30,638 nt of DNA from an uncultured Deferribacteraceae bacterium (GTDB lineage: Bacteria; Chrysiogenota; Deferribacteres; Deferribacterales; Mucispirillaceae): NCBI GenBank assembly GCA_964368965.1, contig CAYJDR010000021.1, forward strand, positions 9,094 through 39,731, in the 5' to 3' direction. The notes below the pieces were generated by a model. That model was not told the DNA's origin, did not search any database, and was given only the letters and a program-made list of their open reading frames with translations. How positions within the stretch are numbered: position 1 is the first letter of the stretch; each line of letters begins with the position of its first letter. The translations under genes and the position numbers were made by a program. Below, in pieces: positions 256 to 27,979 of the stretch.

Positions 256-1965
256 TTAAACTCCTTTTATAGCATGTAATGCCGATAAATAACCGAATGT
301 GATTGCACGCCCGATAGAAGTGCCAGGGATATGCCTTGGATAGTTTCCAGAGAAGAAGCCACCAGAAGCATTACCTGATGCAAATAGGCCTTCAATTACT
401 TCGCCTTTTGTGTCAAGCACTCGGCAATCTTTATCAATAATTAAACCACCAGTAGTTGCAAGGATAACACTATTACAAATCATTGCATAATATTTCTTAC
501 CTGTGAACGGTTTAACAACTGACATATCACGGTTAAAGTCTTTATCAAGATTAGCTTTTTTGTATGCGTTAAAGTCTTTGATTGTTTTATCTAAAGTTTT
601 AGATGGCATACCCATAGCTTTTGCAAGCGCTGTTGGCGATTTAGCTTCAAATAACCAGCCTTTCTTTTTCAACACTTCAAAGCCAATTTCAGCTTTATCA
701 ACTGCTGCTTGGTTTGGTCCAATCATTGTTTCATCAAATATGAACCAACTTTTTGAGCCATATATAGCTTGATTGTTTGTAGCGTTAGATAGCGCTTGGA
801 ATGGAACATCTTCCCTAACGATACGCTCACCTTTATCATTTACAATTATGAACAAGTTCATCGCCCTTAGTGTACGCACTTCTGGATAATGGAATGACTC
901 TGGGTGTCCAAAAGTAAAGTTCATTACAGGGTGCGGAGTTGGGTCCATAGATGCGCCGATTTTTAAGCCCATCATGTGTCCATCACCAGTTGTTCCCCAA
1001 GATGGGTTCCACCATGATGATGAAGCATAATCTTCTGGCCTAACGTAAGCTTTTAACATATCAGGGTTTGCATCATAACCACCAGTTGACAACAACACAC
1101 CTTTAGATGCATTCACTTGGATATACCTATCGCCTTGTTTAGCAATAACGCCTGTAACACGGCCAGATTTATTTCTAATTAACTGTACAGCAGGCGTATC
1201 AGTATGGATTTTAAGATTAGGATATGATTTTGCAACCGCAGTTAAATCTCTTACTACATATATGCCTAAGTTACCACTTCTGAACCTGATGTCAGCAGGG
1301 ATACCTGGCGTTTCATAAAAGCATAATTCAGCATCAATAACTGGCATGCCATTTTTTGGCCCTGGCTTCATTGGTAGTGGAGTCAAGATAAAGCCTTTCT
1401 CGCCTTTATCTAGTTGAGTTTGTAAAAAGTCAATAGCTTCGCCTGAACGATTAACATAAGTTCTTGGAACATCAGGAGATATACGCCAGTTAGCAGAACG
1501 ATATATTTCGTCAAGCAATAATGCTCTATCTGTTTTAATGCCACGTTTCTTTTGGATTGCAGAATCTACTGAACCAACTGCTTCAAAGCAGCCACGCCCA
1601 ACAGACATTTTCTCAAGCACGATAACATCTGCACCTAATGAAGCACCTTTCAACGCCGCAGTAATGCCAGAGATACCAGCACCTACAACTAAGAAATCAC
1701 AATTCATAGTCGACTTAATTTCGCTTTTTGCAATTGTGCGATTTTCAAAACCAATAGGACCCGTAGGGCCAGGAACATCAGCAGACCTAACGTAAATGCT
1801 GTTAGCATCACCTAAAACTGCTTCATAAACTGATTCATCAGCAGCCGCTTTTGCTTCAGCAACTTGAGGCATACCAACAACCGACGCAGCACCAGCCATA
1901 ACGCCTGCCACACCAGCAGACTTTAGAAAGCCACGTCTTGATAAATTTGTTTCAGAATTTTTCAT
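256..1965 (-). CDS. Tat-exported FAD-dependent oxidoreductase, FAD_binding_2 family (fumarate reductase / 3-ketosteroid dehydrogenase-like flavoprotein)
   Basis: The 573-aa ORF has a twin-arginine signal (NLSRRGFLKSAGVAGVMAGAASVVGMPQVAEA), a Rossmann motif (DFLVVGAGISGITAALKG…VIVLEK) and a C-terminal FAD-family tail (GLFASGNASGGFFSGNYP…GRAITFGY). The ORF-track start at 1977 sits inside ATGGAGGAGAATATG, so the second ATG (1965) preceded by GGAGGAG is the likelier start. Confidence 0.8.
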   Translation of the reverse strand: MKNSETNLSRRGFLKSAGVAGVMAGAASVVGMPQVAEAKAAADESVYEAVLGDANSIYVRSADVPGPTGPIGFENRTIAKSEIKSTMNCDFLVVGAGISGITAALKGASLGADVIVLEKMSVGRGCFEAVGSVDSAIQKKRGIKTDRALLLDEIYRSANWRISPDVPRTYVNRSGEAIDFLQTQLDKGEKGFILTPLPMKPGPKNGMPVIDAELCFYETPGIPADIRFRSGNLGIYVVRDLTAVAKSYPNLKIHTDTPAVQLIRNKSGRVTGVIAKQGDRYIQVNASKGVLLSTGGYDANPDMLKAYVRPEDYASSSWWNPSWGTTGDGHMMGLKIGASMDPTPHPVMNFTFGHPESFHYPEVRTLRAMNLFIIVNDKGERIVREDVPFQALSNATNNQAIYGSKSWFIFDETMIGPNQAAVDKAEIGFEVLKKKGWLFEAKSPTALAKAMGMPSKTLDKTIKDFNAYKKANLDKDFNRDMSVVKPFTGKKYYAMICNSVILATTGGLIIDKDCRVLDTKGEVIEGLFASGNASGGFFSGNYPRHIPGTSIGRAITFGYLSALHAIKGV

Positions 1966-2972: not shown

Positions 2973-3011
2973 AAAAAAAGCTAGGCAGTTAATTACCTAG
3001 CTAGATTTTTT
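2973..3011. terminator. bidirectional rho-independent terminator between the Crp-family gene (+) and the YHS gene (-)
   Basis: The sequence is an A-run, then AGCTAGG, a 10-nt loop, CCTAGCT, then a T-run (AGATTTTTT). Both convergent transcripts have a U-run after the hairpin. Confidence 0.5.
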
Positions 3012-3282
3012 ATCCATTTTTATGTTGGTCAATAAATTTGTTTTTGCAATCTTCACTACAGAAGTAGTAAACATCGTTGTAAAGTTTAACTTTGTGGTCT
3101 GTGTCTTCATCAACAAACGATTTACAAATTGGGTCTTGCTTCATCTCTAAAGCTTTTTGAGCTTTCTCTTCTTCTTTACGTTTTTGTTCTGCTTCTTTCT
3201 TTTTTGCATCTGCCTTCTTATAGAACGCATACACCGCAAATATCACAAGCGCTAAAATAAGAAGCTTTGGTAAACTAAACAT
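3010..3282 (-). CDS. small membrane-anchored YHS-domain protein (putative metal-binding)
   Basis: The 90-aa ORF has an N-terminal transmembrane helix (LPKLLILALVIFAVYAFY), a K/E-rich linker, and a C-terminus DPICKSFVDEDTDHKVKLYNDVYYFCSEDCKNKF that matches the YHS/TRASH-type pattern (CxxxV…YYFCSxxCxxxF). It has a GAGGGGG ribosome-binding site. Confidence 0.6.
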   Translation of the reverse strand: MFSLPKLLILALVIFAVYAFYKKADAKKKEAEQKRKEEEKAQKALEMKQDPICKSFVDEDTDHKVKLYNDVYYFCSEDCKNKFIDQHKNG

Positions 3283-3304
3283 TCACTACCCCCTCAACTA
3301 ACCT

Positions 3305-3943
3305 TTACTTACCTTTTTTCTCTGGTATAATATTTATTTGTTTCAGTGCGCCAACGCCAGTTGATATAGTTGTAACCTCAGGCACAGAACGCAGTGCGAT
3401 ATGTACTGATTTACGCATAGATGCTGGCATAGCAGGCAACTTAGCAGGTTTCCCTGTAGTTTTTACTTGCTCTGCTAGTTTTAACGCTTTTTCGATATTG
3501 TCATCAATAGCTTTTTCTTTATAGCCATCAACATCAACGATAACTTCCATCTTAGATGTGTTATCAATATCTAACATTTTTTCAACTAAATATTGCATTG
3601 CATCAATAGTTTGGCCTGATTTACCAACTAACAAATCACGCTCACTAGTTGTGTGAATATTCAACACAATCCTCTCGCCTTTTTGCTCCATGTCAACGTG
3701 AGTATCTGGGAAGCCTGCTTTTTCAAGCATTTCTGATAAGATAACTCTTGCACGGCGTTTTTTGTGCTCGACTTCGTTATACATTATCTTAACTTTTGCA
3801 TTACGTTTACCGAAACCAAGCATACCTTTGCTGCCACTTTCAATAACTTCATGCTCGATATAATCACGTGAGATACCTTGCTGCCTTGAAAAAAGAGCAA
3901 TTACCTCTTCTACTGACGGTCCTTCTACTTCAAAAATTCTCAT
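3305..3943 (-). CDS. jag: Jag/KhpB RNA-binding protein (Jag_N, KH and R3H domains)
   Basis: The 212-aa ORF lies immediately downstream of yidC with a 9-nt gap. Its KH-like core (VILSEMLEKAGF…ERIVLNIHT) and R3H-like tail match the conserved yidC-jag arrangement. Confidence 0.85.
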   Translation of the reverse strand: MRIFEVEGPSVEEVIALFSRQQGISRDYIEHEVIESGSKGMLGFGKRNAKVKIMYNEVEHKKRRARVILSEMLEKAGFPDTHVDMEQKGERIVLNIHTTSERDLLVGKSGQTIDAMQYLVEKMLDIDNTSKMEVIVDVDGYKEKAIDDNIEKALKLAEQVKTTGKPAKLPAMPASMRKSVHIALRSVPEVTTISTGVGALKQINIIPEKKGK

Positions 3944-5774: not shown

Positions 5775-6096
5775 TAAAACTAGCACCTATTGCTGTAGGC
5801 TTCGCCCTTATTATAAGCTGTGTCCCAGCGGGTAATACACTTCTATTGAGTCGATATATTTCCCTAAGCCTTCGCTTGAGTTTGTTGCGTTTGACAGCAA
5901 GCTTACTAACTTTCTTGCTGACAGTAAACGCACACTTCAAGCCGCTCTCACCCTGCATAAAATGCACGATGAACAATTCACCCGACAACCGTTTCCCCGC
6001 GTAAACTGTTGAAAATTCTTGCGAAAATCTCAACCTTTCAGAACGGGGAAAAGTGTTGGATATATTAAACTGCGAGACGTTTACGGCCTTTTGCAC
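5692..6096 (-). CDS. rnpA: ribonuclease P protein component
   Basis: The motifs FPRSERLRF…[23 protein letters not shown] are characteristic of RnpA. The ORF-track start at 6096 is a GTG that overlaps rpmH by 32 nt, and there is no canonical start after the rpmH stop, so the true start is uncertain. Confidence 0.8.
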
Positions 6097-6205
6097 GTCT
6101 TCTTCTGATTATAGCTCTGCCAGAACTAGTAGCCATTCTTGCACGAAAGCCTTGTTTGCGTGCTTTTTTAATTTTTGTAGCTTTTGCCAGTGTCAACTGC
6201 GCCAT
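6065..6205 (-). CDS. rpmH: 50S ribosomal protein L34
   Basis: Manual translation (not in the ORF track, 46 aa) gives [46 protein letters not shown]. The L34 core GFRARMAT…[10 protein letters not shown] is canonical. A GGAGG ribosome-binding site (CACGGAGGAATAC-ATG) precedes it. Confidence 0.85.
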
Positions 6206-6239: not shown

Positions 6240-6268
6240 ATAATATTAATTTGCTTTTGATTTGTCAA
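6240..6268 (-). promoter_or_regulatory. candidate sigma70 promoter for rpmH-rnpA-yidD-yidC-jag (TTGACA-N17-TATTAT on the minus strand)
   Basis: A perfect -35 hexamer (complement of 6263..6268) and a 5/6 -10 hexamer (complement of 6240..6245) are separated by a 17-nt spacer, about 30 nt upstream of the rpmH ATG. Confidence 0.45.
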
Positions 6269-6285: not shown

Positions 6286-8742
6286 TTAATATTTCTCATA
6301 CGAAAATGTTTGTTTATAACATTTTACACGTGAAAAATCTTTATTCTCTAGGTCTTTCTTGTCTATCATGAAGTATAGAGCACCACCGTCACCCCATGCC
6401 ATTGCGCAACCTTCAAGTGATGGAACTTGCATAAGCAAGTACATATCTTCGCTTGTTTCCATATCATAGTCGATATAATCAGCATAGCCGAACATCTTGA
6501 AGCGTGGCTCAAAAGTTGAGATATCAATGTATGAATCAATTATGCTTTCATCGTCACCTAAGAAGCCGAATTTATTATCGTCCTCTTCGTAGTTTGGTAG
6601 GCTAACAGATGCATCAAGCCTGATAGCACATGGGAAGTATTCAATCGTATCTTCCATGTCATCGCTTGGCACTCTTACTAGTTTCGTAACATCTTCGTTA
6701 TAAATTACTTGGCTTTCGCCTGTTTCATCGTCGTAGAAGAAGCTTAGCATACCATTTTTCGGCAAGAAGCCTTTAACGTCATATTGTGCTGCTTCAGCAA
6801 GGTTGATTTGTGTGATAAAGTTCATGTAAACGTCGTCGCTTGCTTTTGGCCATTGCGCTTCGCTTGCTAGGTCAGGGCTACCACCTGCTTTTGATATAGC
6901 ACCAAGTGAGTCATCGCTCAACACTTCGTATGCTTCTGCATATATTTCTGAGCGTTGTAACGTTTTTAGCTGATCAGCGTATTTGCTAAGCCCACACTCA
7001 GGCAATATCAATTCATAATCTTCAGCTGTAACTTTAACACTACCGTCCCTCGCCTCAACATATACGCCTAAACGGTTGCTTGGTAGGTAAACCAGTGTAG
7101 CGCTATCAACTTCATCGTTGAATACGGCTTCGATAGTCATGCCATATAGTTTTTCTAAAACTTCGCTACCAACATCTAACCTTGTGATGTCATTAACACC
7201 GTATGCTGTTGGGCTACCTAAAACAAATACGCCTTTATCATCCATAGCAAGTTCAACAACGATAGATGTGTAAGGTTTACCACCAGTGTTCAATTCTTCT
7301 TCAAACATTGATGCTAAGTCTTCCAATTTTTCGCTATTGTCATCTAATGATAGGTCATAATATTCATCGAACTCTTTGATTTCATAAGTGATATCTTCCG
7401 CAGTAATTTCACTTGCGCCATCAGCTGGAGTGAACACAAACAAGAACGTATCCCATGCGCCAGCGATTGACGTTGTAATATCGCCTACTAAGTTTAGTTG
7501 GTCAATTAATTTATCTGCGTATTTATCATCAAGGTGTTGTACTGCAAAGTTGCCACCGTCTGATGTGTATAAATCTAGCGTGTAGCTTTCACCTTCGTCG
7601 ATAAGCCTGATAACACCCATATAGTGTTTGTGCTTAGTTTCGATACACTCCATTAAAGCTGTTGCAAGTATCGGTAAATTTTCAACCATATCTTTTTCGC
7701 CAGCTAGTTCATCGTTCGCTGGTGTAAATTCATCATCTTCTTCATCAGGTGATACGATATTATATACTTTGCTTTCTGCTTTATCTTTTTTATCATGTCC
7801 ACCACAACCACAGCCTTCGCCTTCATCGTGGTTATGTTCGCCACAACATTCGTGGTCGTCATCGTCGTGCCCATGTCCACCGCAACAGCCATCATGGCCG
7901 TGCTCATGCTCATCTTCATCAGCGTATAGTGGATAGAAAGTTGCACTATATCTACCATCGTAGAAACAAGTAACAGTGAACGCCTCTATATCGTGGCGCA
8001 TGTCAGATGCTGTTAGAAACTCTTCGATAGCTAGCGCTAAATCCATATTTTCTTCCATAGATTTATCAACAGTTTCTTCTGTGCCGTCTTTAGTAGTTGT
8101 GTACATTGTTGTGTTGCCAGTGAATAGGCCGTTTTCTACTTCAAACGTAACGTTGCGAACATTTTGCTCGCCTTTTAATATAACTGCTTTTGCGATATTT
8201 CTAAGTGATTCGAACATAGACTTATCTGACTTAGGGTTCTCGATAGTCACTTCTTTCGGTGCACGGTTAAACATGCGTGCTAAGTTTGCAAACTCACCGA
8301 ACACATGGTCTGGCTCGCCATTTGAAAGCCCAAGTATAGCGTATGATTCGACATCATCAGTTAAAACTGTGCCGTAAAATAGTGTTGGTTCTTCTTCAAG
8401 TTCAACCATTCCGCAAATTTCAAGTGCCAACATATCATCAGAGATGAAGTGGCGTGCTGCAAAGAACTCAACATCGCTACCCTCAGCACCTAAGAAGTCT
8501 TCAAGCAATAGCTCAAGCGTCTCGCCAACTGTGTCTTTAGCGTCGTTAAGTTTGCCGATACCAGCCATGAAATTAATACCTTCATCACTCCAAGAATGGA
8601 TAGACATGTTATTATATTTCGCTACGTCTTCAACGCCTGAGATAGCTACTTCAGGTTGTGCACCTTGTTCCGCTATTACATCGCCTGTTTCTTTAAATGC
8701 TTGTTTGATAGCATTAGTCCATGTGTTCATAAATTGCTCCAT
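6286..8742 (-). CDS. large acidic hypothetical cytosolic protein: N-terminal repeated modules, His/Cys/Asp-rich tract, C-terminal DUF1963 (YwqG-like) domain
   Basis: The 818-aa ORF has no signal peptide or transmembrane segment and is very rich in D/E. The C-terminal roughly 205 aa carry DUF1963 hallmarks: SKAGGSPDLASEAQWP…FITQINL…LPKNGMLSFFYD…LLMQV…AWGDGGALYFMIDKKDLENKDFSRVKCYKQ. Its start is 2 nt after the fabI stop. The alternative start M5 (8730) has a GGAG ribosome-binding site. Confidence 0.75.
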   Translation of the reverse strand: MEQFMNTWTNAIKQAFKETGDVIAEQGAQPEVAISGVEDVAKYNNMSIHSWSDEGINFMAGIGKLNDAKDTVGETLELLLEDFLGAEGSDVEFFAARHFISDDMLALEICGMVELEEEPTLFYGTVLTDDVESYAILGLSNGEPDHVFGEFANLARMFNRAPKEVTIENPKSDKSMFESLRNIAKAVILKGEQNVRNVTFEVENGLFTGNTTMYTTTKDGTEETVDKSMEENMDLALAIEEFLTASDMRHDIEAFTVTCFYDGRYSATFYPLYADEDEHEHGHDGCCGGHGHDDDDHECCGEHNHDEGEGCGCGGHDKKDKAESKVYNIVSPDEEDDEFTPANDELAGEKDMVENLPILATALMECIETKHKHYMGVIRLIDEGESYTLDLYTSDGGNFAVQHLDDKYADKLIDQLNLVGDITTSIAGAWDTFLFVFTPADGASEITAEDITYEIKEFDEYYDLSLDDNSEKLEDLASMFEEELNTGGKPYTSIVVELAMDDKGVFVLGSPTAYGVNDITRLDVGSEVLEKLYGMTIEAVFNDEVDSATLVYLPSNRLGVYVEARDGSVKVTAEDYELILPECGLSKYADQLKTLQRSEIYAEAYEVLSDDSLGAISKAGGSPDLASEAQWPKASDDVYMNFITQINLAEAAQYDVKGFLPKNGMLSFFYDDETGESQVIYNEDVTKLVRVPSDDMEDTIEYFPCAIRLDASVSLPNYEEDDNKFGFLGDDESIIDSYIDISTFEPRFKMFGYADYIDYDMETSEDMYLLMQVPSLEGCAMAWGDGGALYFMIDKKDLENKDFSRVKCYKQTFSYEKY

Positions 8743-18711: not shown

Positions 18712-21492
18712 ATGGATCTGTTAAATAGTAGTGCACGCAATTTGCTTAATATTTATGAAGAAGTTTATGATTTAAACCTAAGCAAAGGTACATACGAAGT
18801 TGTTTACTATACTGAAAACCAATATATTATGGTCGAAATTTCTGGCCTGATATCTACAGCTGTACAATATTTGATAAATAACCTTGTTTATCCTGATGAC
18901 AGAGCACCTTTTGCTCAATTTTTAGATCCAGCCGAGATGTTTAAAACGTTTGAAGAAAGCACTCGCTCGCCTAGTATTGACCTACGTCGTTTAAGGCAAG
19001 ATAATACATACTCTTGGATTCAAGTTTTAGCAGCTCAACATATAGATGAAGATGGCGACCACCATATAGTACTTGGTGTAATTGATATCCACGATCGCAA
19101 AACTCGCGAGGAACGCGAATACAACAACTACTTCAAAACACTGCAAGCACTTGGCAAAACTTATGTCAATATCTCTGAAATAAATTTAACTCAAAATACG
19201 ATACGTATTATAAAAGAAGATTTATATAAAGAGTTTGAAAGCAAAACCTACTGTATTGAAGAATTTCTTGGAGTGCAGATGAAACCACTTATTCATCCGC
19301 TTGATACTCCTATTATTGAAACTGTAGTTCAACAGCTTCCTACAATTTATGAAAACAATGCTGAACGCACTTTCGAAGCGCGTATATTGCTAACTAACAA
19401 TAGCTATCAGTGGCGCGAGTTCCACATAATCGCACCTGTTAGAGATGTAACAGATCTTGACAGCGACAAACGCTTACTCCTCACACTTAGAAACATTAGT
19501 GAAAGAAAACTTACAAAATCTCTTGTTGATAAATTTATCTACAACAACGTTGAGTTTATTGCGTTCCTTAACCTCGAAAGCTCAACATACTTTATATATG
19601 ATGAAAACATTGATGACCCTAGACCAGTACCACTATCAAACGAAGTTGAGCTTTTAGTTCGCAAATGTGTTAAAAAAGATATGGCTTACGTCAGGGAACA
19701 ACTCAAGGTTGATAACTTACGTGAAAAACTTATCGAAAATGACAACTACACATTTTACTGCGATATGATATCTAATATTGGCGCATTAAAGAAGAAATTT
19801 ATGTTCACTAAACCTGATGCGCATAATGATTTAGTGCTCTTCACTATCACTGATATCACAAACATACATAAGCAAGAACAAGAAAAAAATAACATGCTCG
19901 TACAAGCACTTAAAGAAACAGAAGTTGCAAACAGAGCTAAAACCGACTTTATCTCTCGCATGTCGCACGATATCAGGACCCCTATGAACGGCGTTATCGG
20001 CATGACATCAGTTGCACTTAACGCCATTGGCGATGATGAAAAAATTAAAGACTGTCTGCAAAAAATCAACACGTCATCTCAATTCCTACTGACGCTTATC
20101 AATGATATATTAGATATGTCTAAAATTGAAAGCGGCATGATGACAATGAATAATGCACACTTTAATTTTAGAGAGTTTACAAACAGCATCAATACATTAA
20201 TTTCATCATTTGCAGCTAGCAGAAATGTAAACTTTGAGCTTGAAGTTGATGATTTACTCTACGACTACGACTACGTTGGCGATTCGCTTCGCCTAAACCA
20301 AGTTTTAATGAACTTACTATCAAACGCTATCAAGTTCACAAACACAAACGGCCTAGTTAGTTTAAAAGTTACAACACATCACAAAACTAGTGAGTTCACA
20401 TCAATATTGTTCACAATCACTGATACTGGCTGTGGCATGTCTAAAGAGTTTATGGCAAAAATGTATGACCCATTTGAGCAAGAAGAAAACGACAAAGCAC
20501 GTAACCAAGTCGGCAGTGGCTTAGGGCTTGCTATTGTAAATAACTTAACTAAACTTATGGGCGGTACTATCGAAGTTGAAAGTGAAATCGGCAAAGGTAG
20601 CACATTTTACGTGCAAGTGCCACTAGATATAGCTGAATGTGACAACACTCTTACATCTAGCACACTATTCGATAACGACTTAAAGATACTAATCATCGAT
20701 GATGACCCTGTCACATGCGAACATGCACAGCTATTGCTTGAAAAAATCAGCCCTAAGATTAAAACTGATGCAGCACATAATATTAATGACGCACTTGAGT
20801 TACTTCACGGCGCACATGGGTTTGATAAAATAATACTTGATTGGCGCATACCTAGGTCCAAGCTTTCAACAAACATTGAGCAGCTCACTAGGATGTCTAA
20901 ACTTGACACTAGCTCTATAATCATGATGACTGCGTACGATATCTCAACATTGAAAAGAGAAGCAAAATCTGCTGGCATAAAAGTGTTTATCCCAAAGCCA
21001 CTTACACAAGAAGCACTGCGCATAGCTATCAGCAAACAAAGTGCAGAAAAAAGTATCAAGCAGATACAAATGAAACCTGCTAGCAATTCTACATATGAAG
21101 GCAAACGCATACTACTTGTAGATGATAACAACATCAACCTTGAGGTTGCAAACTCGTTACTCACTAGCCGTAAAGTTTCTGTTGTATTGGCTAGAAACGG
21201 GCAAGAAGCAGTCGACATCTTTACAAATGCAGAGCCAGGCTTCTTTGATGCTATCTTCATGGATATCAGAATGCCTATCATGGACGGCCTTACAGCAACA
21301 AAAGCAATACGCAATCTCGACAGACGCGACGCTAAATCAATCACAGTAGTTGGTGTATCGGCAGATGCTTTCCAGCAAGATATCAACACTGCGCTACAAG
21401 TCGGCATGAACCACTACTTGATTAAGCCAATCGTTATTGACCAACTCAATGAGTTGTTAGCAACGCTTTTCCCATCTGACGAACTTATATAA
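18712..21492 (+). CDS. cytoplasmic hybrid sensor histidine kinase (PAS-like N-terminal region, HisKA, HATPase_c, two receiver domains)
   Basis: The 926-aa ORF has no predicted transmembrane helix. The H-box is FISRMSHDIRTPMNGVIGM and the G-boxes are DTGCGM and GSGLGL. REC1 is KILIIDDDPV…ILDWRIP and REC2 is RILLVDDNNINLEV…IFMDIRMPIMDG. Confidence 0.9.
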   Translation: MDLLNSSARNLLNIYEEVYDLNLSKGTYEVVYYTENQYIMVEISGLISTAVQYLINNLVYPDDRAPFAQFLDPAEMFKTFEESTRSPSIDLRRLRQDNTYSWIQVLAAQHIDEDGDHHIVLGVIDIHDRKTREEREYNNYFKTLQALGKTYVNISEINLTQNTIRIIKEDLYKEFESKTYCIEEFLGVQMKPLIHPLDTPIIETVVQQLPTIYENNAERTFEARILLTNNSYQWREFHIIAPVRDVTDLDSDKRLLLTLRNISERKLTKSLVDKFIYNNVEFIAFLNLESSTYFIYDENIDDPRPVPLSNEVELLVRKCVKKDMAYVREQLKVDNLREKLIENDNYTFYCDMISNIGALKKKFMFTKPDAHNDLVLFTITDITNIHKQEQEKNNMLVQALKETEVANRAKTDFISRMSHDIRTPMNGVIGMTSVALNAIGDDEKIKDCLQKINTSSQFLLTLINDILDMSKIESGMMTMNNAHFNFREFTNSINTLISSFAASRNVNFELEVDDLLYDYDYVGDSLRLNQVLMNLLSNAIKFTNTNGLVSLKVTTHHKTSEFTSILFTITDTGCGMSKEFMAKMYDPFEQEENDKARNQVGSGLGLAIVNNLTKLMGGTIEVESEIGKGSTFYVQVPLDIAECDNTLTSSTLFDNDLKILIIDDDPVTCEHAQLLLEKISPKIKTDAAHNINDALELLHGAHGFDKIILDWRIPRSKLSTNIEQLTRMSKLDTSSIIMMTAYDISTLKREAKSAGIKVFIPKPLTQEALRIAISKQSAEKSIKQIQMKPASNSTYEGKRILLVDDNNINLEVANSLLTSRKVSVVLARNGQEAVDIFTNAEPGFFDAIFMDIRMPIMDGLTATKAIRNLDRRDAKSITVVGVSADAFQQDINTALQVGMNHYLIKPIVIDQLNELLATLFPSDELI

Positions 21493-21622: not shown

Positions 21623-22610
21623 CTATACTTTAAACGAAGCGACTAACGCCTTTAAGTTCTCAGTACGTACTTGCAAGTGTGAAACCGTTGCTGCAACTTG
21701 GCTAATTGCAGAGTTGCTTTCCTCAATACCTGTAGCGATTGTTTGAGTATTTTCAGACACCATTTGTATAGTGTTAAACTGCTCTGTATTTTTGCCAGAT
21801 AGCACTTCTGTATCTCCATAAACAGTTGACACGCTTGAAACAACTTCTTCAAAGCCTGCTGCTGTTTGCTTAATACTTTCAACACCTTCATCAATATATT
21901 CACCTGATTTCAACATTTCGTTTGAAGCAGCATCTGAGTCTGTTTGCAATGTTGAAATAATGGCCTCAATCTCACTTGTAGCTTTTTGCGTACGCTCTGC
22001 AAGCTTACGAACCTCGTCAGCAACTACTGCAAACCCTCTGCCAGCCTCACCTGCGCGTGCAGCCTCGATAGCAGCATTTAATGCAAGTAGGTTTGTTTGG
22101 TCTGCGATATCGTTAATAACAGTTAAAATCTCACCAATATGGCCAGAACTTTCAGATAATCTTGATATCTTCTCAGATAGCGATACTGATTGTTCGCTGA
22201 TTTTCGCAATGCTCTCTTGCACTGACACAAGCTGAGCTTGCCCTTCGCTAGTTGACGAATTTGTAGAGTTTAATATGCTTAAGTTTTTATCAAAAGCAAC
22301 TTTTGATTCGCTAGCAGTTTCGCTAATGAAGCCCATGCTAGATACAATCTCACCAACTTGGTGCGTTTGCCCTTCGAAAGTTATTGCGAGTTCTTCCATA
22401 GTTGCAGCAAGCTCATTATTGCTTGATGCCACTTCTTCAGCAGATGCTTTCACTTCAATAATTATGTTTTGTACGTTTGATACAAACTCGTTAAAGTGTG
22501 TTGCTAGCTCTTCAAGTTCATCATGGCTTGTCGTAGAGATACGCCTTGTTAAGTCGCCATCACCTTGAGTAAAGTCTTTAGTGACATTAATAAACCTTCT
22601 AAGTGGCGTT
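21623..22610 (-). repeat. conserved HAMP plus signalling-domain module of MCP paralog 1 (copy 1 of 3)
   Basis: Stretches of near-identical nucleotides are shared with the other two copies, for example TCTGCCAGCCTCACC…GCAGC…ATAGCAGC/GGCGTTTAATGCAAG…GTTTGTTTGGTCTGC. Confidence 0.7.
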
Positions 22611-23635
22611 ACAACAGTCTTCAACATGATAAACACAATCAATACGCCAATAGCAACTGCAATTAACGACATAACTGAGGCCGCAACTGTAGTAAACTTT
22701 AGCCTATCAGCTGTAGCTGTAGTATATTGAGCAACTGTAGATAATAATACGTCAGAAACTTTACCTAACTTTTCTATCATATCATAGTAGATAGTTCTGT
22801 TTTTATTTTTGATATCTGCATATTGTTTGCTGATGTCAATAAGATTAATAGTGGCAGCCATTAGTGCTTTATTAGCATCCTCAGCCACATCAACAACCTG
22901 CCTAACAGAGTCTACTTTGATAATAGCTCTAAGGTCATTTAATTGTGTAGCAACTAACTCAAGTGTTTCATAAACAGCTTCAGGTGTAGCAACTTTGAAA
23001 GTTTTATAGTCTAAATAGTTAATAGCAACAACAGCCACAGAAGATTTAACTTTATCAACAGCTTCTAATGCTTGTGCTAAGCGAATGATATTTGCGACAT
23101 CTTCGTTTGCGATAGCATCTTTTTGGAATTGGTTCGCTATGTCATAAAGTTTATTGGTGGTTTCTATCATTACTACATAGTTTTCTTTAAAAACACCGTC
23201 TAGCCTAATCATTTCGTCAACGATGCCTATTAAGTCTTCATGTGTTTTAATATAACTTTCTGCGGCGTCATAAGTAGCATCCATATCGTTAGCTAGCGTA
23301 CTAATTAATACTTCATCACGGTTTTCAGCAAGCAACTCACGCAGTGCAGCTATGTCAGCATATGACTGTTTTAAAAATCTTTCAGATCCTTCTTTCCTGC
23401 TTTGTTCTGAACTGATTGTGTAGTTTAAAATATTAATGCTTGTTAAAAGGTTAGAACTGTCAAGCTTCTTTTCAGCATTAATAAAAGGCGTATAGACATG
23501 AGTGGAAGCCTCTGCCTCTTTTGATGAAACTGTTGAAAGCGAATAAATTATCACCCCTTGGATAACCCCTAAGATTACCAGTGATATAACCGCAATCACT
23601 ATTTTTTTCGTAATAGTAAATCTTATCCCAAACAT
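21623..23635 (-). CDS. methyl-accepting chemotaxis protein, paralog 1
   Basis: The architecture is TM1, a roughly 270-aa helical periplasmic ligand-binding domain, TM2, HAMP ([23 protein letters not shown]), then an MCP signalling domain ([34 protein letters not shown]). The start was moved to the ATG at 23635, which is preceded by GGAGGGA; the longest ORF starts at 23662. Confidence 0.9.
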
Positions 23636-23724
23636 ATTTCCCTCCATATTAAAAGTAACCATACATATATACGCATATCGTACACCTATTTTTCAATAAA
23701 ATAAAGATAATTTTATATAAGAGT

Positions 23725-23758
23725 TAAAAAAAATGGTAGCTAACTATCAGCTACCATT
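23725..23758 (-). terminator. rho-independent terminator for MCP-2
   Basis: A 10-bp perfect stem (AATGGTAGCT / AGCTACCATT) with a 7-nt loop is followed by a U8 run on the minus-strand transcript. Confidence 0.55.
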
Positions 23759-23781
23759 CATATTTATAAGTTTGAATTGTT

Positions 23782-24770
23782 TTAAACCTTGAATGAGGCA
23801 ACCAATGCTTTCAAGTTTTCTGTGCGCATTTGTAAGTGTGATACAGTTTTAGCCACTTCACTAACTGCTATATTGCTCTCCTCAATACCTGTAACGATTG
23901 TTTGGGTGCTAGTAGACACAGCTTGTATGATATTGAATTGCTCTGTATTCTTTTCAGACAATAGTTCAGTATCTTGGTAGATTGACTGCACAGTTGATAC
24001 AACATCTTCAAAGCCAGATGCTGTTTGCCCAATGCTATCTACACCTTCGTTAATATACTCACCAGATTTCAACATTTCGCTAGATGCGGCTTCGGAATCG
24101 GTTTGTAATGTAGAGATAATGTTTTCAATTTCGCTTGTAGCTTTTTGTGTGCGTTCTGCAAGTTTGCGCACTTCATCTGCAACTACTGCAAACCCTCTGC
24201 CAGCCTCACCAGCACGTGCAGCTTCAATAGCGGCGTTTAATGCAAGCAAGTTTGTTTGGTCTGCAATGTCATTAATAACGGTTAAGATATCACCGATATG
24301 TTCAGAGCTTTTTGACACCCTTGATATCGTTTGTGATAACGATGTAGATTGCTCACTAATCTTAACAACGTTACCTTGCACTGCAACAAGCTGTGCTTGG
24401 CCTTCACTAGTGGAAGCAGTTGTTTCGTTTAATATTGCTAGGTTGTTATCAAATGCTACTTTTGATTCCTCTGCACTTTTGCTAATTAAAGACATGCTGG
24501 TAACAATTTCGCTGACTTCAGCAGTTTGGCCATCAAATGTAACTGCTAACTCTTCCATAGTTGCAGCTAGCTCGTTGTTGCTTGTAGCGACTTCTTCCGC
24601 AGCTATTTTAACTTCAGTAATGATATTCTGAACATTTTCAACAAATGCATTGAAGTATGTGGAAAGCTCTTCCAATTCATCACGGCTAGTTGTTGTGATG
24701 CGCCTAGTTAAATCACCGTCACCTTCTGTGAAATCTTTAGTGATATTGATAAACCTTCTAAGTGGCGCTG
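23782..24770 (-). repeat. conserved HAMP plus signalling-domain module of MCP paralog 2 (copy 2 of 3)
   Basis: It shares the same conserved nucleotide stretches and is closest to copy 3. Confidence 0.7.
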
Positions 24771-25794
24771 TAACTGTTTTCATAATAACAAGTACAACAA
24801 TAATGCCTATTGCAACAGCAATAATTGCCATGATATATGATGCAGTAGTCGTTAAATCTAACCTTTCAACCGTTGCAGCAGCATATTCTTCACTTCTAGT
24901 GTTTAGTGTTTTGATAACGCCATCTAAATGTTTGCTCATTTCTGCAAAAGCGTTTCTATTTTGTACTTTTAAGCCATCATATTCCACTTTGATATCTGCA
25001 AGGATAGCCGCAGTTTCTATTAAAGTATTGCCTGCTTTTTCAGCTGTCTCAATCATCTGAAAAGTAGTTGGTTGTTTAACAACTTTTTTAAGTGTAGCTA
25101 GTGCTGCTAAAACTTCCTTAGTGTTATCTGTAATAAATTTGAAGTCACTTGAAGTGAAAGTTTTAATAGTAAGGTAACCATAAACAACATCTTCAATAGC
25201 AGCTGTTAAGTGGTAGTTAGCTTCAATTGCTTTAGCGATACGGTTAGTATTTTCGACATCGCCATCTGCTATCGCTTTGTTCATATATCTGAACGCGTCT
25301 CCAGTGAGAGTCGAGATATTTTCGCGCGCTACATTTAATGCTTCGAGAAATTTTTCCTCTTGTGTTACAGACTCAGACGTAAGATCTAACAGCCTTGTTG
25401 TAGAAGCTAGGAATGCATCAATGCCTTTGTTTGTAGCTTCAAACTCATCGAGCAGCGATTGAATTAGTGGATCATCACCATTTTCATCAACCATATTTTT
25501 AACTAACGCTTTAGTGCTATTAGCTTGCGCTAAAAATGCTTTTGCGCGCTCAGATCTAGCATTATCACCATCAATTGAAAAGTTAACAACATTGAGGTTT
25601 GCTAACAATATCGAGTTTTTAACAGAGTTTTCTGCAAAGTTCAATGGATAGTATATCTCGTTAGAAGCTTTTGCTTCATTCGTAGACTTTTTTGCTAGTA
25701 TCGAAATTATTGCACCTTGCGCAATATATAGCATGATAAGTATAACTATACCTGCAACTATTTTCTTAGTAATTGTAAACCTAAATCCGTTCAT
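23782..25794 (-). CDS. methyl-accepting chemotaxis protein, paralog 2
   Basis: It has the same architecture as paralog 1. A GGAGG ribosome-binding site sits 7 nt upstream of the ATG. The C-terminal roughly 330 aa are about 93% identical to paralog 3. Confidence 0.9.
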
Positions 25795-25908
25795 TCTTAA
25801 TCGCCTCCAAAAGCAATCATTTAGATATTTAATTTTATTAAGGTATTACAATACTACTAAGTTTAAAAAAAATAAAGAAAAATTTCTTTAATGTTTTATT
25901 TTTCACGC

Positions 25909-25940
25909 AAAAAAGGTGGCAAACGTTTGCCACCTTTAGA
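25909..25940. terminator. bidirectional rho-independent terminator for MCP-3 (20-nt perfect palindrome GGTGGCAAACGTTTGCCACC at 25915..25934)
   Basis: The palindrome is flanked by AAAAAA on one side and TTT on the other, and it lies 30 nt after the MCP-3 stop. Confidence 0.6.
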
Positions 25941-25963
25941 TAATATTTTATTAATTAATTATA

Positions 25964-26950
25964 TCAAACTTTAAATGAAGCGACAAGTGCCTTTAAGTTT
26001 TCAGTACGCATTTGTAGGTGCGATACAGTTTGAGCAACTTGGCTAACAGCGATATTGCTTTCCTCAATACCCGTAACGATTGTTTGAGTACTGCTTGAAA
26101 CAGTTTGTATAATATTGAACTGCTCTGTATTCTTTTCAGACAATAGCTCAGTATCTTGATAGATTGACTGCACTGTTGCAACAACTTCTTCAAATCCAGC
26201 AGCAGTTTGCCCGATACTATCTACACCCTCATTAATATATTCGCCAGATTTTAGCATCTCATTTGATGCTGCTTCAGAATCTGTTTGTAATGTAGATATA
26301 ATGTTTTCAATTTCACTTGTTGCTTTTTGCGTACGCTCTGCCAGTTTGCGCACCTCATCTGCAACCACTGCAAACCCTCTGCCAGCCTCACCAGCACGAG
26401 CAGCTTCGATAGCGGCGTTTAATGCAAGCAAGTTTGTTTGGTCTGCTATATCATTAATAACTGTTAAAATATCGCCGATATGTTCAGAGCTTTTCGACAC
26501 CCTTGATATCGTTTGTGATAACGATGTAGATTGCTCACTAATTTTAACAACATTACCTTGCACCGCAATAAGTTGTGCTTGGCCTTCGCTTGTGGAAGTT
26601 GTTGTTTCATTTAATATATCTAAGTTGTTACAGAAAGCTGTTTTTGACTCTTCAGCGCTTTCACTAATTATAGACATGCTTGTCATAATCTCGCCAACTT
26701 GGTGCGTTTGGTCATCAAATGTAACAGCTAGCTCTTCCATTGTTGCAGCTAATTCATTGTTGCTTGTTGCAACTTCTTCTGCAGCGGCTTTAACTTCAAT
26801 AATGATGTTTTGAACATTTGCCACAAATGCATTAAAGTATCTTGCAAGTTCTTCTAACTCGTCATGGCTAGTAGTTGTAATGCGCCTTGTTAAGTCGCCA
26901 TCGCCCTCTGTAAAATCTTTAGTTGTGCTGATAAAGTTTCTAAGTGGTTG
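25964..26950 (-). repeat. conserved HAMP plus signalling-domain module of MCP paralog 3 (copy 3 of 3)
   Basis: It shares the same conserved nucleotide stretches and is closest to copy 2. Confidence 0.7.
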
Positions 26951-27979
26951 CACAATCGCCCTACGCACAACAAACATACTCACGATACCTACTAAAAGTG
27001 TCGATAGCACAAGTATAAATGATGTAAGTGTAGTGAACTGTAGCCTTGATGAAGTGGCTTCTGAATATGTTGCAACTCTATTATTCATCGCTGCTGAAAT
27101 TTTATCTAGTTCTGCTTTCATTTTGTAGTAGATATCTCTATTTTCAGCTTTTATATCATTATATGATGCCATGATTTTATCTAACTCTGTTGCTGTTGAT
27201 ATAAGGTTTTTACTTGCTTCATCTGCTGCTTTTATAAACACTTGAACATCACTACGCTTAACTTGAACCTTCAAATTATTTACAGCTTCTGTTACAAGTG
27301 CAATAGATTTCACAACTTCGTCCATGTCATATTTGCTGAGGTTTTTTGCATCAAAAAACTGCTTTGTAACCATAGCAACTGCCGACTTTAACTCCTCGCT
27401 GAGTTGAAGTGCATTTATAGTGTTTGACATTGCTGTAACATCGCCAGAATCTGCGATAATGTCTGCCCTCTTGGTAGATTCACTATGTATGGTGCTTGCG
27501 CTTGTATCCATAATATTCAACTTTTCAATAAACTCGCTCTCCAGTGTCAACATGTCATCAATTATTGTAAATAAGTCATCATGTGTTCCGATATATAAGC
27601 CTGCCTGCGTATATGCCGCTTCCATTGTTGATGATAATTCATTAATTAGGTCGTTACTGTCACGGTGCTCGGCTAATAACTCTTGAAGCACAACTAAATC
27701 ATCTTTTGAACTTTGTTGGAATGTTGCCGCACCACTTTTACGGGTTGGGTCAGCTGTGATAAGGTAGTTAACCAAGTTGATGTTGGTCAACAATAGTGAA
27801 GTATTAAGAGCAACTTCTGCATTTACAAATGGCACGTACACATCATTTGATGCGGTTGCCTCACGTGATGACACTGTTGATAATGAGTAATTAATAACCC
27901 CTTGCACAACACCTATCATCAGTAGCACGACAGTGATAATTGCAACCTTTTTAGCAATTGTAAGTCTGAATATGTTCAT
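25964..27979 (-). CDS. methyl-accepting chemotaxis protein, paralog 3
   Basis: It has the same architecture as the other two paralogs and a GGAGGA ribosome-binding site. Its N-terminal sensor domain diverges from paralogs 1 and 2, while the C-terminal signalling module is near-identical. Confidence 0.9.

Follow-up and report, generated by a model that had tools for sequence, protein, structure and literature searches.

We asked what a histidine-, cysteine- and acid-rich segment might do in the middle of a large protein that is otherwise poor in His and Cys. The segment, DEHEHGHDGCCGGHGHDDDDHECCGEHNHDEGEGCGCGGHD, lies in an 818-aa ORF on the minus strand of a 30,638-nucleotide stretch of DNA from an uncultured Deferribacteraceae bacterium (hereafter, the window). 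The coordinates of the features are collected in Table 1. The 41-residue tract was present in the 818-aa protein as a sequence-only reading of the window had described it, and the end given there was right, whereas the start is at 7792 and not at 7793, because 41 codons need 123 nt.

Table 1. Positions of the host gene, its predicted regions and the tract in the window.
Feature	Position	Strand	Residues and description
Host gene	6286..8742	(-)	818-aa ORF; acidic (pI 4.1) cytoplasmic multidomain protein
N-terminal folded region	7924..8610	(-)	about 45-273; alpha+beta; AF2 prediction; ends in DGRYxxTFYP motif
Disordered interdomain linker	7705..7923	(-)	274-346; tract plus acidic tail; AF2 prediction
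His/Cys/Asp/Glu/Gly tract	7792..7914	(-)	277-317; HxHxH triad, two CCGxHxH units, terminal CGCGGH unit
Tract, first half DEHEHGHDGCCGGHGHD	7864..7914	(-)	277-293; matches the family-wide His-rich segment by position
Tract, second half DDDHECCGEHNHDEGEGCGCGGHD	7792..7863	(-)	294-317; expansion limited to the window protein and P0002
Middle folded region	6925..7704	(-)	about 347-606; alpha+beta; AF2 prediction; holds second repeat copy (about 471-562)
DUF1963/TYPP domain (YwqG family)	6319..6894	(-)	617-808; C-terminal
Antisense His/Arg-rich ORF	7749..7973	(+)	74 aa; by-product of sense codons, not a gene

The tract consists of 11 Gly, 9 His, 8 Asp, 6 Glu, 6 Cys and 1 Asn, while the remaining 777 residues of the protein contain only 7 His and 7 Cys. 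Relative to the rest of the protein, the binomial probability of at least 9 His in 41 residues was 1.1e-10, and that of at least 6 Cys was 1.8e-6. Among the six-frame ORFs of at least 100 aa in the window, it was the densest 41-mer for His plus Cys (15, versus 9 or fewer elsewhere), and the runner-up segments were all in non-coding frames. The Cys residues form three groups, namely G-CC (C286/287), E-CC (C299/300) and CGC (C311/313), so spaced that only CC and CxC occur and neither CxxC nor CxxH is found. There is no HH dipeptide; all nine His are isolated and occur in HxH patterns with Gly or acidic spacers. Direct repeats were searched for in the DNA of the tract and none was found, and thus there is no sign of recent slippage.

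We next characterized the host protein. Judged from the alignment of orthologs, its true start is probably M5 (nt 8730), which would give 814 aa; the NCBI protein P0001, identical to the host, begins at this residue. In a Pfam scan of the 818-aa protein, DUF1963 was the only domain found, with no FKBP_C and no IF domain, and an NCBIfam scan gave no match. The DUF1963 (PF09234) match at the C-terminus, which had also been recognized from the sequence alone, was strong (E = 1e-32, 114.7 bits vs cutoff 23, 212/216 model positions), and the domain has the fold of Bacillus subtilis YwqG (PDB 1pv5). The GGxP motif and conserved Gln of TYPP domains (PMC4275035) were both found: G620-G621-S-P623 occurs unchanged in the window protein and in P0002, and AQINL (Q645) and LLxQxxS (Q772), whose Gln are candidate pocket residues, are kept in 7/7 TYPP-bearing members. 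DUF1963 was matched in 7/12 family members and is absent from the Mucispirillum orthologs.

The regions upstream of this domain were matched to Mog1/PsbP/SciW/EsaG-like folds by tools that do not give the matching query region, and they show the alpha+beta sandwich of the Mog1/PsbP/DUF1795 (Eag/SciW) type, as in Mog1, PsbP, SciW and DcrB. A weak YezG-like Pfam match (residues 428-500, E = 0.029) was below the cutoff. An internal repeat was detected between residues 178-269, i.e., the second half of the N-terminal region, and residues 471-562 (hhalign probability 73%, E = 3e-5). The tract had been placed between the repeated modules and DUF1963; this did not hold, since one repeat copy is present on either side of it. 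The tract separates two Mog1/PsbP-like regions, and DUF1963 lies 300 residues downstream.

In the AF2 model used here, which was built from an alignment of only 12 sequences, pLDDT was below 50 (mean about 29) at residues 274-324 and 326-346, and 80-95 in the flanks; an earlier run with a 3-sequence alignment (pLDDT 35) was superseded by this one. The model predicts that residues 274-346 are a flexible, disordered linker between the Mog1/PsbP-like domains. At its N-terminal border, G263 and Y265 of the DGRYxxTFYP motif are invariant, and D262, R264, T268 and P271 near-invariant, in the family alignment. In the acidic tail that follows the tract, the short motifs KVYNI and DEFxPANDELA are kept in P0002.

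An exhaustive HMMER search recovered a family of 11 clusters, all from Deferribacterota, and for the roughly 600-residue N-terminal portion no sequence relatives were found beyond these 11 clusters. In Deferribacterota, the host gene invariably has fabI on one side and rpmH on the other. Fusions of PsbP/Mog1 and TYPP domains were noted earlier for "family four" of the bacterial TYPP proteins (PMC4275035), and the host resembles the TYPP superfamily (DUF1963/YwqG; eukaryotic TSR4/PDCD2) in its YwqG-family C-terminal domain and its Mog1/PsbP-like N-terminal fold. However, a His/Cys linker is undescribed in that superfamily, for which only sporadic in-domain CxxC pairs and the MYND insert of PDCD2 are mentioned (PMC4275035).

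In 10/11 clusters of the family, a His-rich segment, mostly with Cys, is located at the same spot after DGRYxxTFYP, and its consensus is about HxHDxxCxHxHxH, with the residue pairing being approximate in such low-complexity sequence. The first half of the tract corresponds to this segment, while the second half is aligned with gaps in every family member except the window protein and P0002. Linker length varies from 21 to 77 residues and the Cys count from 0 to 6, the majority of members having 0-2 linker Cys yet many His. The His/Cys core is stable inside 90% clusters. Note that the P0010 linker has 1 His and 0 Cys, and the P0008 linker has His but no Cys, so that these residues are not indispensable to the family. 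The alignment of orthologs accordingly gave a conserved core together with a variable length, from almost nothing in P0010 to 41 residues.

The closest comparison is P0002, an ortholog with 53% overall identity. Within the tract, 27/41 residues, 6/6 Cys and 7/9 His are identical; the 27/41 identity is only about 1.6 sd above the 53% background. All six Cys are retained despite synonymous codon turnover, but the spacing of the Cys groups differs by small indels, which are concentrated in the tract region. Because P0002 is the only other sequence with the elaborated tract, the argument from its conservation is a single pairwise comparison. Orthologs lacking the tract entirely, the case that the sequence-only reading had named as refuting its proposal, did not turn up, given the retained Cys of P0002 and the His-rich segment at this position in 10/11 clusters. 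These alignments suggest that the tract arose in situ by growth of a shorter ancestral His-rich linker.

Among known sequences, the tract comes closest to the metal-binding tail at the C-terminus of SlyD, an FKBP-type PPIase/chaperone of E. coli with gammaproteobacterial and spirochete homologs. The E. coli SlyD (b3349) tail and the tract share the exact 11-mer HDGCCGGHGHD, in each the six Cys are arranged as CC...CC...CxC, and both are written in an alphabet of His, Cys, Asp, Glu and Gly. Identity was up to 76% (32/42 residues), reached with an Aeromonadaceae SlyD tail (L027). With the tract as query, neither BLASTP against E. coli SlyD nor phmmer against PDB sequences gave a match, because filters for low complexity and compositional bias discard hits of this kind; Smith-Waterman alignment with a shuffle control was used in their place. 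The order-specific match between tract and SlyD scored above all 2000 composition-preserving shuffles. Both segments are disordered, the tract by prediction, and attached to chaperone-like domains. On the other hand, the host of the SlyD tail is an FKBP PPIase with an inserted IF chaperone domain, whereas the host of the tract has neither, and the SlyD tail is a C-terminal extension, whereas the tract is internal, with about 270 folded residues before it and about 500 after it. Recent horizontal acquisition from slyD was also considered and rejected: only 7/32 identical residues share the codon with the best SlyD match, which excludes a recent DNA transfer, and the site is already His-rich elsewhere in the family.

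The SlyD tail is unstructured, and its multiple nickel sites differ in geometry and in coordination number (PMC7055735). SlyD takes up several Ni(II)/Zn(II) ions and supports [NiFe]-hydrogenase maturation via HypB (PMC7055735, PMC10653786), and it has also been linked to Fe-S biogenesis (PMC10653786). The tract had previously been likened to Helicobacter Hpn, the HspA C-terminus and the HypB N-terminal stretch, whose His-rich sequences are implicated in Ni/Zn binding (PMC7055735; HspA: PMC10653786 reference 43). These too are His-rich sequences of low complexity, and some of them contain Cys pairs. The transition-metal-type look of the tract was well seen; as nearest relatives, however, they give way to the SlyD tail with its shared 11-mer and Cys order. 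Specifically, when compared by sequence pattern, Hpn and HypB have poly-His runs, whereas the tract has no consecutive His.

Tracts with the exact pattern DDDHECC were found at 27 loci. Among their hosts, SlyD-type FKBPs, which match FKBP_C, were the joint-largest class (10/27 loci). At 25/27 loci the tract ends at the C-terminus or within 2 residues of it; the exceptions are L011, where it ends 14 residues before the C-terminus, and L008, where it is near the N-terminus. At least five other protein families carry the repeat unit of the tract as well. Tails of the DDDHECCGGHGH type were found on NAD_binding_2 dehydrogenase-like proteins of Collinsella and Oscillibacter, Nitro_FeMo-Co-like proteins of Formivibrio, YlbF-like proteins of Akkermansia, and uncharacterized proteins of Clostridium and Niameybacter. 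They share with the tract the repeated unit (D/E)HECCGGHGH(D/E)n (45-70% identity over 20-57 query residues), but their host families are unrelated and their tracts are all terminal or near-terminal. Searching the literature for these motif strings turned up no papers.

Considering these observations together, we favor, with moderate confidence, the reading of the tract as a disordered linker with binding sites for several Ni/Zn ions, inside a Deferribacterota-specific chaperone/adaptor-like protein. The family architecture comprises Mog1/PsbP-like protein-binding modules, usually followed by the TYPP (DUF1963/YwqG) domain, a predicted peptide binder, and the tract would have expanded within one Deferribacteraceae clade from the shorter His-rich interdomain linker ancestral to the family. 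The ligands would be His imidazoles, the Cys thiolates of the CC/CC/CxC groups and neighboring carboxylates. In the reduced cytoplasmic state, the linker would most likely bind, reversibly, roughly 3-5 Ni(II)/Zn(II), possibly also Co or Cu(I), at one HxHxH and three Cys2-His(1-2) sites with micromolar to sub-micromolar affinity. It may then act as a local metal reservoir or relay for the protein, serving its host much as the SlyD tail serves its chaperone domain; alternatively, metal could set the relative position of the two halves of the protein. A metal-sensing or storage loop, as first suggested from the sequence, is likewise a putative role.

A different use of metal, in which a fixed number of Zn(II) or an Fe-S cluster on the six Cys folds the linker up as a compact knot and thereby fixes the N- and C-terminal halves in a defined geometry, is in our view unlikely, although several observations agree with it. 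The window protein and P0002 have exactly six invariant Cys in three pairs, the short family core could make a single site, and low pLDDT is compatible with such a knot, AF2 being blind to metal-dependent folding. In addition, the Formivibrio tails are carried by Nitro_FeMo-Co-like proteins adjoining IscA-like genes, and SlyD itself is tied to Fe-S biogenesis (PMC10653786). However, the tract lacks the CxxC and CxxH spacings by which zinc ribbons, zinc knuckles and Fe-S motifs are usually recognized, and it is moreover predicted to be disordered by a method that models no metals; the vicinal CC and Gly-rich spacers match the unstructured multi-site tail of SlyD (PMC7055735); and a fixed site sits poorly with indels between the Cys groups and a Cys count that varies across the family. 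Still less would we expect selection for acidic, Gly-rich disorder only, with His and Cys tolerated as by-products of local expansion. The variable linker length, the concentration of indels there and the nearly His/Cys-free P0010 linker agree with such a spacer, as does the gene context, which also speaks against the metal-binding reading: a search of the 30-kb window for an operon of metal homeostasis (nik, hyp, ure, znu), be it for nickel, zinc, hydrogenase or urease, found none, the neighborhood is of the housekeeping type (ruvCAB, radA, fabI, rpmH, rnpA, yidC, jag), and a small YHS-domain ORF, six genes downstream, is the sole metal-related gene in the window. Against it, these proteins have few His and Cys outside the linker, where both nevertheless recur in 10/11 clusters, the six Cys have persisted at 53% overall identity through synonymous turnover, the core is stable inside clusters without repeats in the DNA, and a by-product would hardly match the SlyD tail better than every shuffle of the same composition.

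Reversible disulfides between the vicinal Cys, altering linker conformation under oxidative stress, would make the tract a redox sensor. Three closely spaced Cys pairs are available for this, and the lineage is anaerobic to microaerophilic with prominent oxidative-stress systems (PMC5285517). We nevertheless regard it as very unlikely, because Cys so strictly interleaved with HxH motifs and acidic residues are the mark of metal ligands and not of thiol switches, most family members have few or no Cys but many His, and the nearest sequence relatives are metal-binding tails. Finally, that the antisense ORF over the tract is a true functional element is hardly conceivable. Its 74-codon frame is open and His/Arg-rich, and the equivalent frame is also open across the tract of the ortholog; however, it lies wholly within a gene that is conserved over its full length, syntenic and confidently folded, its openness follows from the sense codons (GAY/CAY/TGY/GGN/GAR), which give no antisense stops, and its coding is without independent support. 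Its earlier description as a mirror image of the tract is thus reasonable.

In SlyD-type metallochaperones, it is the His/Cys-rich tail that holds nickel and hands it over. The likeness of the tract to such a tail in an unrelated host, its apparent build-up from a simpler His-rich linker and the occurrence of the repeat unit elsewhere suggest that this sequence solution arises time and again and can be joined to a variety of client-binding scaffolds. SlyD co-purifies on Ni/Co affinity resins (IMAC), and proteins with such tracts are expected to behave in the same way. A bolder and doubtful extension of the metal-binding linker reading is that the protein encoded between fabI and rpmH is an unrecognized Deferribacterota-specific metallochaperone, in which Mog1/PsbP-like and TYPP domains replace FKBP/IF and a SlyD-type linker delivers or buffers Ni/Zn. 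If so, candidate clients would be [NiFe]-hydrogenase maturation factors or, alternatively, basic, possibly zinc-binding ribosomal proteins; the latter are proposed because the eukaryotic TYPP proteins Tsr4/PDCD2 chaperone uS5 and because the adjacency to rpmH is conserved. The near-identical (D/E)HECCGGHGH cassettes, carried by no fewer than six unrelated protein families, would then represent a recurrent metallochaperone add-on of independent evolutionary origin. For Deferribacterota, where the family extends to the cultivable Mucispirillum schaedleri of the mouse gut (ortholog WP_023274961.1), the putative metal-binding linker offers a first functional handle on an uncharacterized, lineage-wide gene.

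The His/Cys/Asp-rich tract (DEHEHGHDGCCGGHGHDDDDHECCGEHNHDEGEGCGCGGHD) that the sequence-only reading reported in the 818-aa protein (minus-strand ORF 6286..8742) was confirmed by direct reading of the translation, although it starts at 7792 and not at 7793, which was one base short. Among its 41 residues are 9 His and 6 Cys, compared with 7 of each in the remaining 777 (binomial P = 1.1e-10 for His and 1.8e-6 for Cys). The His and Cys of the tract together number 15, whereas no 41-residue stretch of another window ORF of 100 aa or more, whatever its frame, has above 9. No DNA direct repeats were found within the tract, and no two of its His residues are adjacent.

We next compared the tract with sequences of other proteins. 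A genome scan with the peptide pattern DDDHECC returned 27 further loci from unrelated bacteria, whose best matching segments are 36-80% identical to the tract. As judged by Pfam on representative ORFs together with sequence inspection, their hosts were SlyD-type FKBP proteins (10 loci; Vibrio, Tolumonas, Aeromonadaceae, Psychromonas, Aliagarivorans, Ruminobacter and Oceanispirochaeta), NAD_binding_2 proteins resembling 3-hydroxyisobutyrate dehydrogenase (11 loci; 10 in Collinsella, 1 in Oscillibacter), Nitro_FeMo-Co-like small proteins (2 loci; Formivibrio, the one scanned falling slightly under the Pfam cutoff), YlbF-like proteins (2 loci; Akkermansia) and proteins without a Pfam match (2 loci; Clostridium and Niameybacter). 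The tract is at the C-terminus or within 2 residues of it in 25 of these loci, 14 residues short of it in L011 and near the N-terminus in L008, whereas that of the window protein is internal. In the non-SlyD families, the (D/E)HECCGGHGH(D/E)n repeat tails are nearly identical to one another; a literature search for the tail motif strings found nothing. L013 has two closely spaced genes for tailed Nitro_FeMo-Co-like proteins, at a distance of ~500 nt from an IscA/HesB-like gene.

The E. coli K-12 SlyD tail, taken from the annotated genome, shares with the tract the exact 11-mer HDGCCGGHGHD and the same six-Cys arrangement, CC...CC...CxC. Since low-complexity matches of this kind are discarded by BLASTP and phmmer, the likeness rests on explicit alignment with shuffle controls: the local alignment score was 123, against 67 +/- 10 (maximum 110) for 2000 composition-preserving shuffles. 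The best match was an Aeromonadaceae SlyD tail (L027), with 32 of 42 aligned residues identical. Only 7 of these 32 residues have the same codon, indicating that the likeness is at the peptide level and ruling out recent gene transfer from slyD. The SlyD tail was shown experimentally to be unstructured and to bind as many as seven Ni(II), with affinities from sub-micromolar to micromolar, as well as Zn and Co; SlyD needs it to play its part in the maturation of [NiFe]-hydrogenase (PMC7055735 section 3.3; PMC10653786). Thus, the resemblance to metal-binding segments proposed earlier holds, but SlyD is a closer analogue than those then named (Hpn, the HspA C-terminus and HypB N-termini); poly-His runs of the Hpn and HypB type are less apt as a comparison, since the tract lacks adjacent His.

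Pfam recognized only DUF1963 (residues 617-808) in the host protein, and an NCBIfam scan of it gave no match. In the AF2 model (12-sequence family alignment; mean pLDDT 77), confidence is high for the folds of residues ~45-273 and 347-815; the stretch between them (274-346), including the tract, has pLDDT ~29 and is predicted to be a disordered linker. Fold matches of the host protein were SciW, a T6SS chaperone (11.4), DcrB (11.2), PA0094 (10.9), Mog1 (10.3), EsaG (9.4), BH3703 (DUF600; 9.1) and PsbP (9.1). The repeated modules of the sequence-only reading were partly recovered, as a ~90-residue duplication (helix, three strands, helix, two strands; hhalign probability 73%, E = 3e-5). However, the two copies flank the tract, which thus does not lie between the modules and DUF1963, as had been supposed, and is not adjacent to DUF1963. 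DUF1963 belongs to the TYPP superfamily, for which chaperone-like binding of extended peptides is predicted and fusions to PsbP/Mog1 domains are known (PMC4275035); in eukaryotes, its members Tsr4 and PDCD2 serve ribosomal protein uS5 as dedicated chaperones (PMC7736825, PMC6648895). The linker motifs 3' of the tract, which have looser counterparts (DYFPE..) in Mucispirillum, could dock on a folded domain, e.g., the TYPP peptide channel, as short linear motifs.

Coordinates of the features described (L-numbers, other genomic loci)
Feature	Residues	Position	Remark
Tract	277-317	window 7792..7914 (-)	
First half of tract	277-293		
Second half of tract	294-317		
HxHxH triad	H279/281/283		tract unit
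Two CCGxHxH units	286-292, 299-305		acidic spacers between
CGCGGH unit	311-316		end of tract
Linker 3' of tract, with motifs KVYNI, DEFxPANDELA	318-346	window 7705..7791 (-)	disordered; motifs conserved with P0002
Duplicated module	~178-269, ~471-562	window 7936..8211, 7057..7332 (-)	
Sigma-70-like promoter		window 6240..6268 (-)	near-consensus; TTGACA, 17-nt spacer, TATTAT; 11/12 matches
rpmH		window 6065..6205	
Small YHS-domain-type protein		window 3010..3282 (-); L031:11825-12091, L032:9758-10015, L033:10556-10813	85-90 aa; 3' of jag
Mucispirillum ortholog		L032:5001-6641	M. schaedleri WP_023274961.1; relatives P0009, P0010, P0012; 542-546 aa
Example tail-bearing ORFs		L003:5083-6162, L006:1718-2290, L013:5551-6105 and 3264-3770, L026:5536-6102, L008:5881-6375, L012:4618-6138	
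Chemotaxis proteins		window 21623..27979 (-)	three; 670-679 aa
Hybrid histidine kinase/response regulator		window 18712..21492 (+)	

When 5.8 billion proteins were searched by word index, only the window protein itself and a single relative came up: P0002, which is 52% identical and belongs to a MAG of an uncultured Deferribacteraceae bacterium. With residues 1-616 as the query, an exhaustive HMMER scan across 1.84 billion cluster representatives gave 11 clusters in all (22-53% identity); the named ones among their members are hypothetical proteins of Mucispirillum schaedleri. At all loci inspected, fabI and rpmH flank the gene, and the window gene order matches the orthologous loci, (yebC-ruvCAB-radA)-fabI-X-rpmH-rnpA-yidC-jag, where X is the 818-aa gene or its ortholog; this placement and the family-wide search indicate that these are positional orthologs and that the gene is an old one specific to the lineage. 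The Mucispirillum orthologs end ahead of the TYPP domain and retain the His-rich linker, and rpmH follows directly with no separate DUF1963 gene 3' of the ortholog, suggesting that this branch either lost TYPP or can do without it. In P0007 (443 aa, on a 2.8-kb ENA contig), a biotinyl/lipoyl-type domain (PF00364, E = 2.7e-15) replaces the usual middle region after the N-terminal domain and His-rich linker; this arrangement could be real, as an alternative fusion, or an artefact of chimeric assembly.

Conservation of the linker bears on how the tract is to be read. An acidic stretch directly follows the invariant DGRYxxTFYP motif in all family members and is His-rich in 10 of the 11 clusters (consensus ~HxHDxxCxHxHxH), so that the outcome named earlier as evidence against it, orthologs altogether without the tract, was not seen. 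P0004 has 9 His in its 40-residue linker versus 6 in its other 740 residues, the linker of P0010 has almost no His or Cys, and linker Cys number 0-4 in the more distant members. The family-wide alignment thus marks the first half of the tract as a family feature and the second as an elaboration of the window/P0002 clade. The His/Cys core is essentially invariant inside 90%-identity clusters. At close range, where conservation is one pairwise comparison with the sole close ortholog P0002, 6/6 Cys and 7/9 His are identical, as are 27/41 tract residues (66%), versus 53% over the whole protein and 43% in residues 318-616. Synonymous codon differences at the identical tract residues (11/27, 41%) are similar to the gene-wide 49%, indicating that the DNA diverged here as elsewhere while the peptide was maintained; a spacer that is simply acidic and flexible, its His and Cys incidental, is accordingly rather improbable. 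A discrete structural Zn or Fe-S site ordering the linker is an unlikely alternative that shares the conserved Cys; indels of 1-3 residues lie between the Cys groups of the two proteins. The same Cys could serve a thiol redox switch, which we consider very improbable. The protein is very acidic (pI 4.1) and its N-terminus is not signal-peptide-like by inspection, so that it is most likely cytoplasmic with reduced thiols. The antisense ORF 7749..7973 exists, and the equivalent frame of P0002 is open across the tract, but this openness follows from the sense codon set; it is a mirror image, as proposed earlier, and almost certainly not a real gene.

The longest ORF starts at ATG 8742 (MEQFMNTW...), 2 nt 3' of fabI. 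However, the identical NCBI protein P0001 starts at the MNTW/MxxW position, as do several orthologs. M5 at 8730 (-) is thus the probable true start; the product would then be 814 aa long and the gap to fabI 14 nt. The gene is likely the last of a ruv-radA-fabI unit, and the strong promoter-like site between its stop codon and rpmH suggests that rpmH-rnpA-yidD-yidC-jag probably has its own promoter. No metal-operon context was found within the window beyond the small YHS-domain ORF (assigned by synteny and inspection rather than a Pfam run), which ends DPICKSF...YYFCSEDCKNKF and has an apparent N-terminal hydrophobic helix. Six genes from the tract-bearing gene, it is possibly a weak metal-related context. 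It is followed by a Crp-like regulator and a FAD_binding_2 protein in the window, and by GTP cyclohydrolase FolE2 (PF02649) and then a TPR protein in the other loci. Elsewhere in the window, three tandem paralogous methyl-accepting chemotaxis proteins (HAMP + MCPsignal) adjoin a hybrid histidine kinase/response regulator.

Conservation and the specific likeness to SlyD tails strengthen the metal-binding reading of the tract, which is plausible. Its four units would offer about four potential sites, with Cys2His(1-2) or His3 ligands plus carboxylates, and by analogy with SlyD may reversibly bind several Ni or Zn ions. [NiFe]-hydrogenases are in use among Deferribacterota (PMC5285517), making nickel a plausible putative metal, although the present data are equally compatible with zinc. 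For clients bound by the Mog1/PsbP-like and TYPP domains, the tract could store metal locally or pass it on; alternatively, metal binding may set the arrangement of the protein's two halves. What is new is that a putative metal-binding segment of the SlyD type is here the internal linker of a new, lineage-specific chaperone-like protein.
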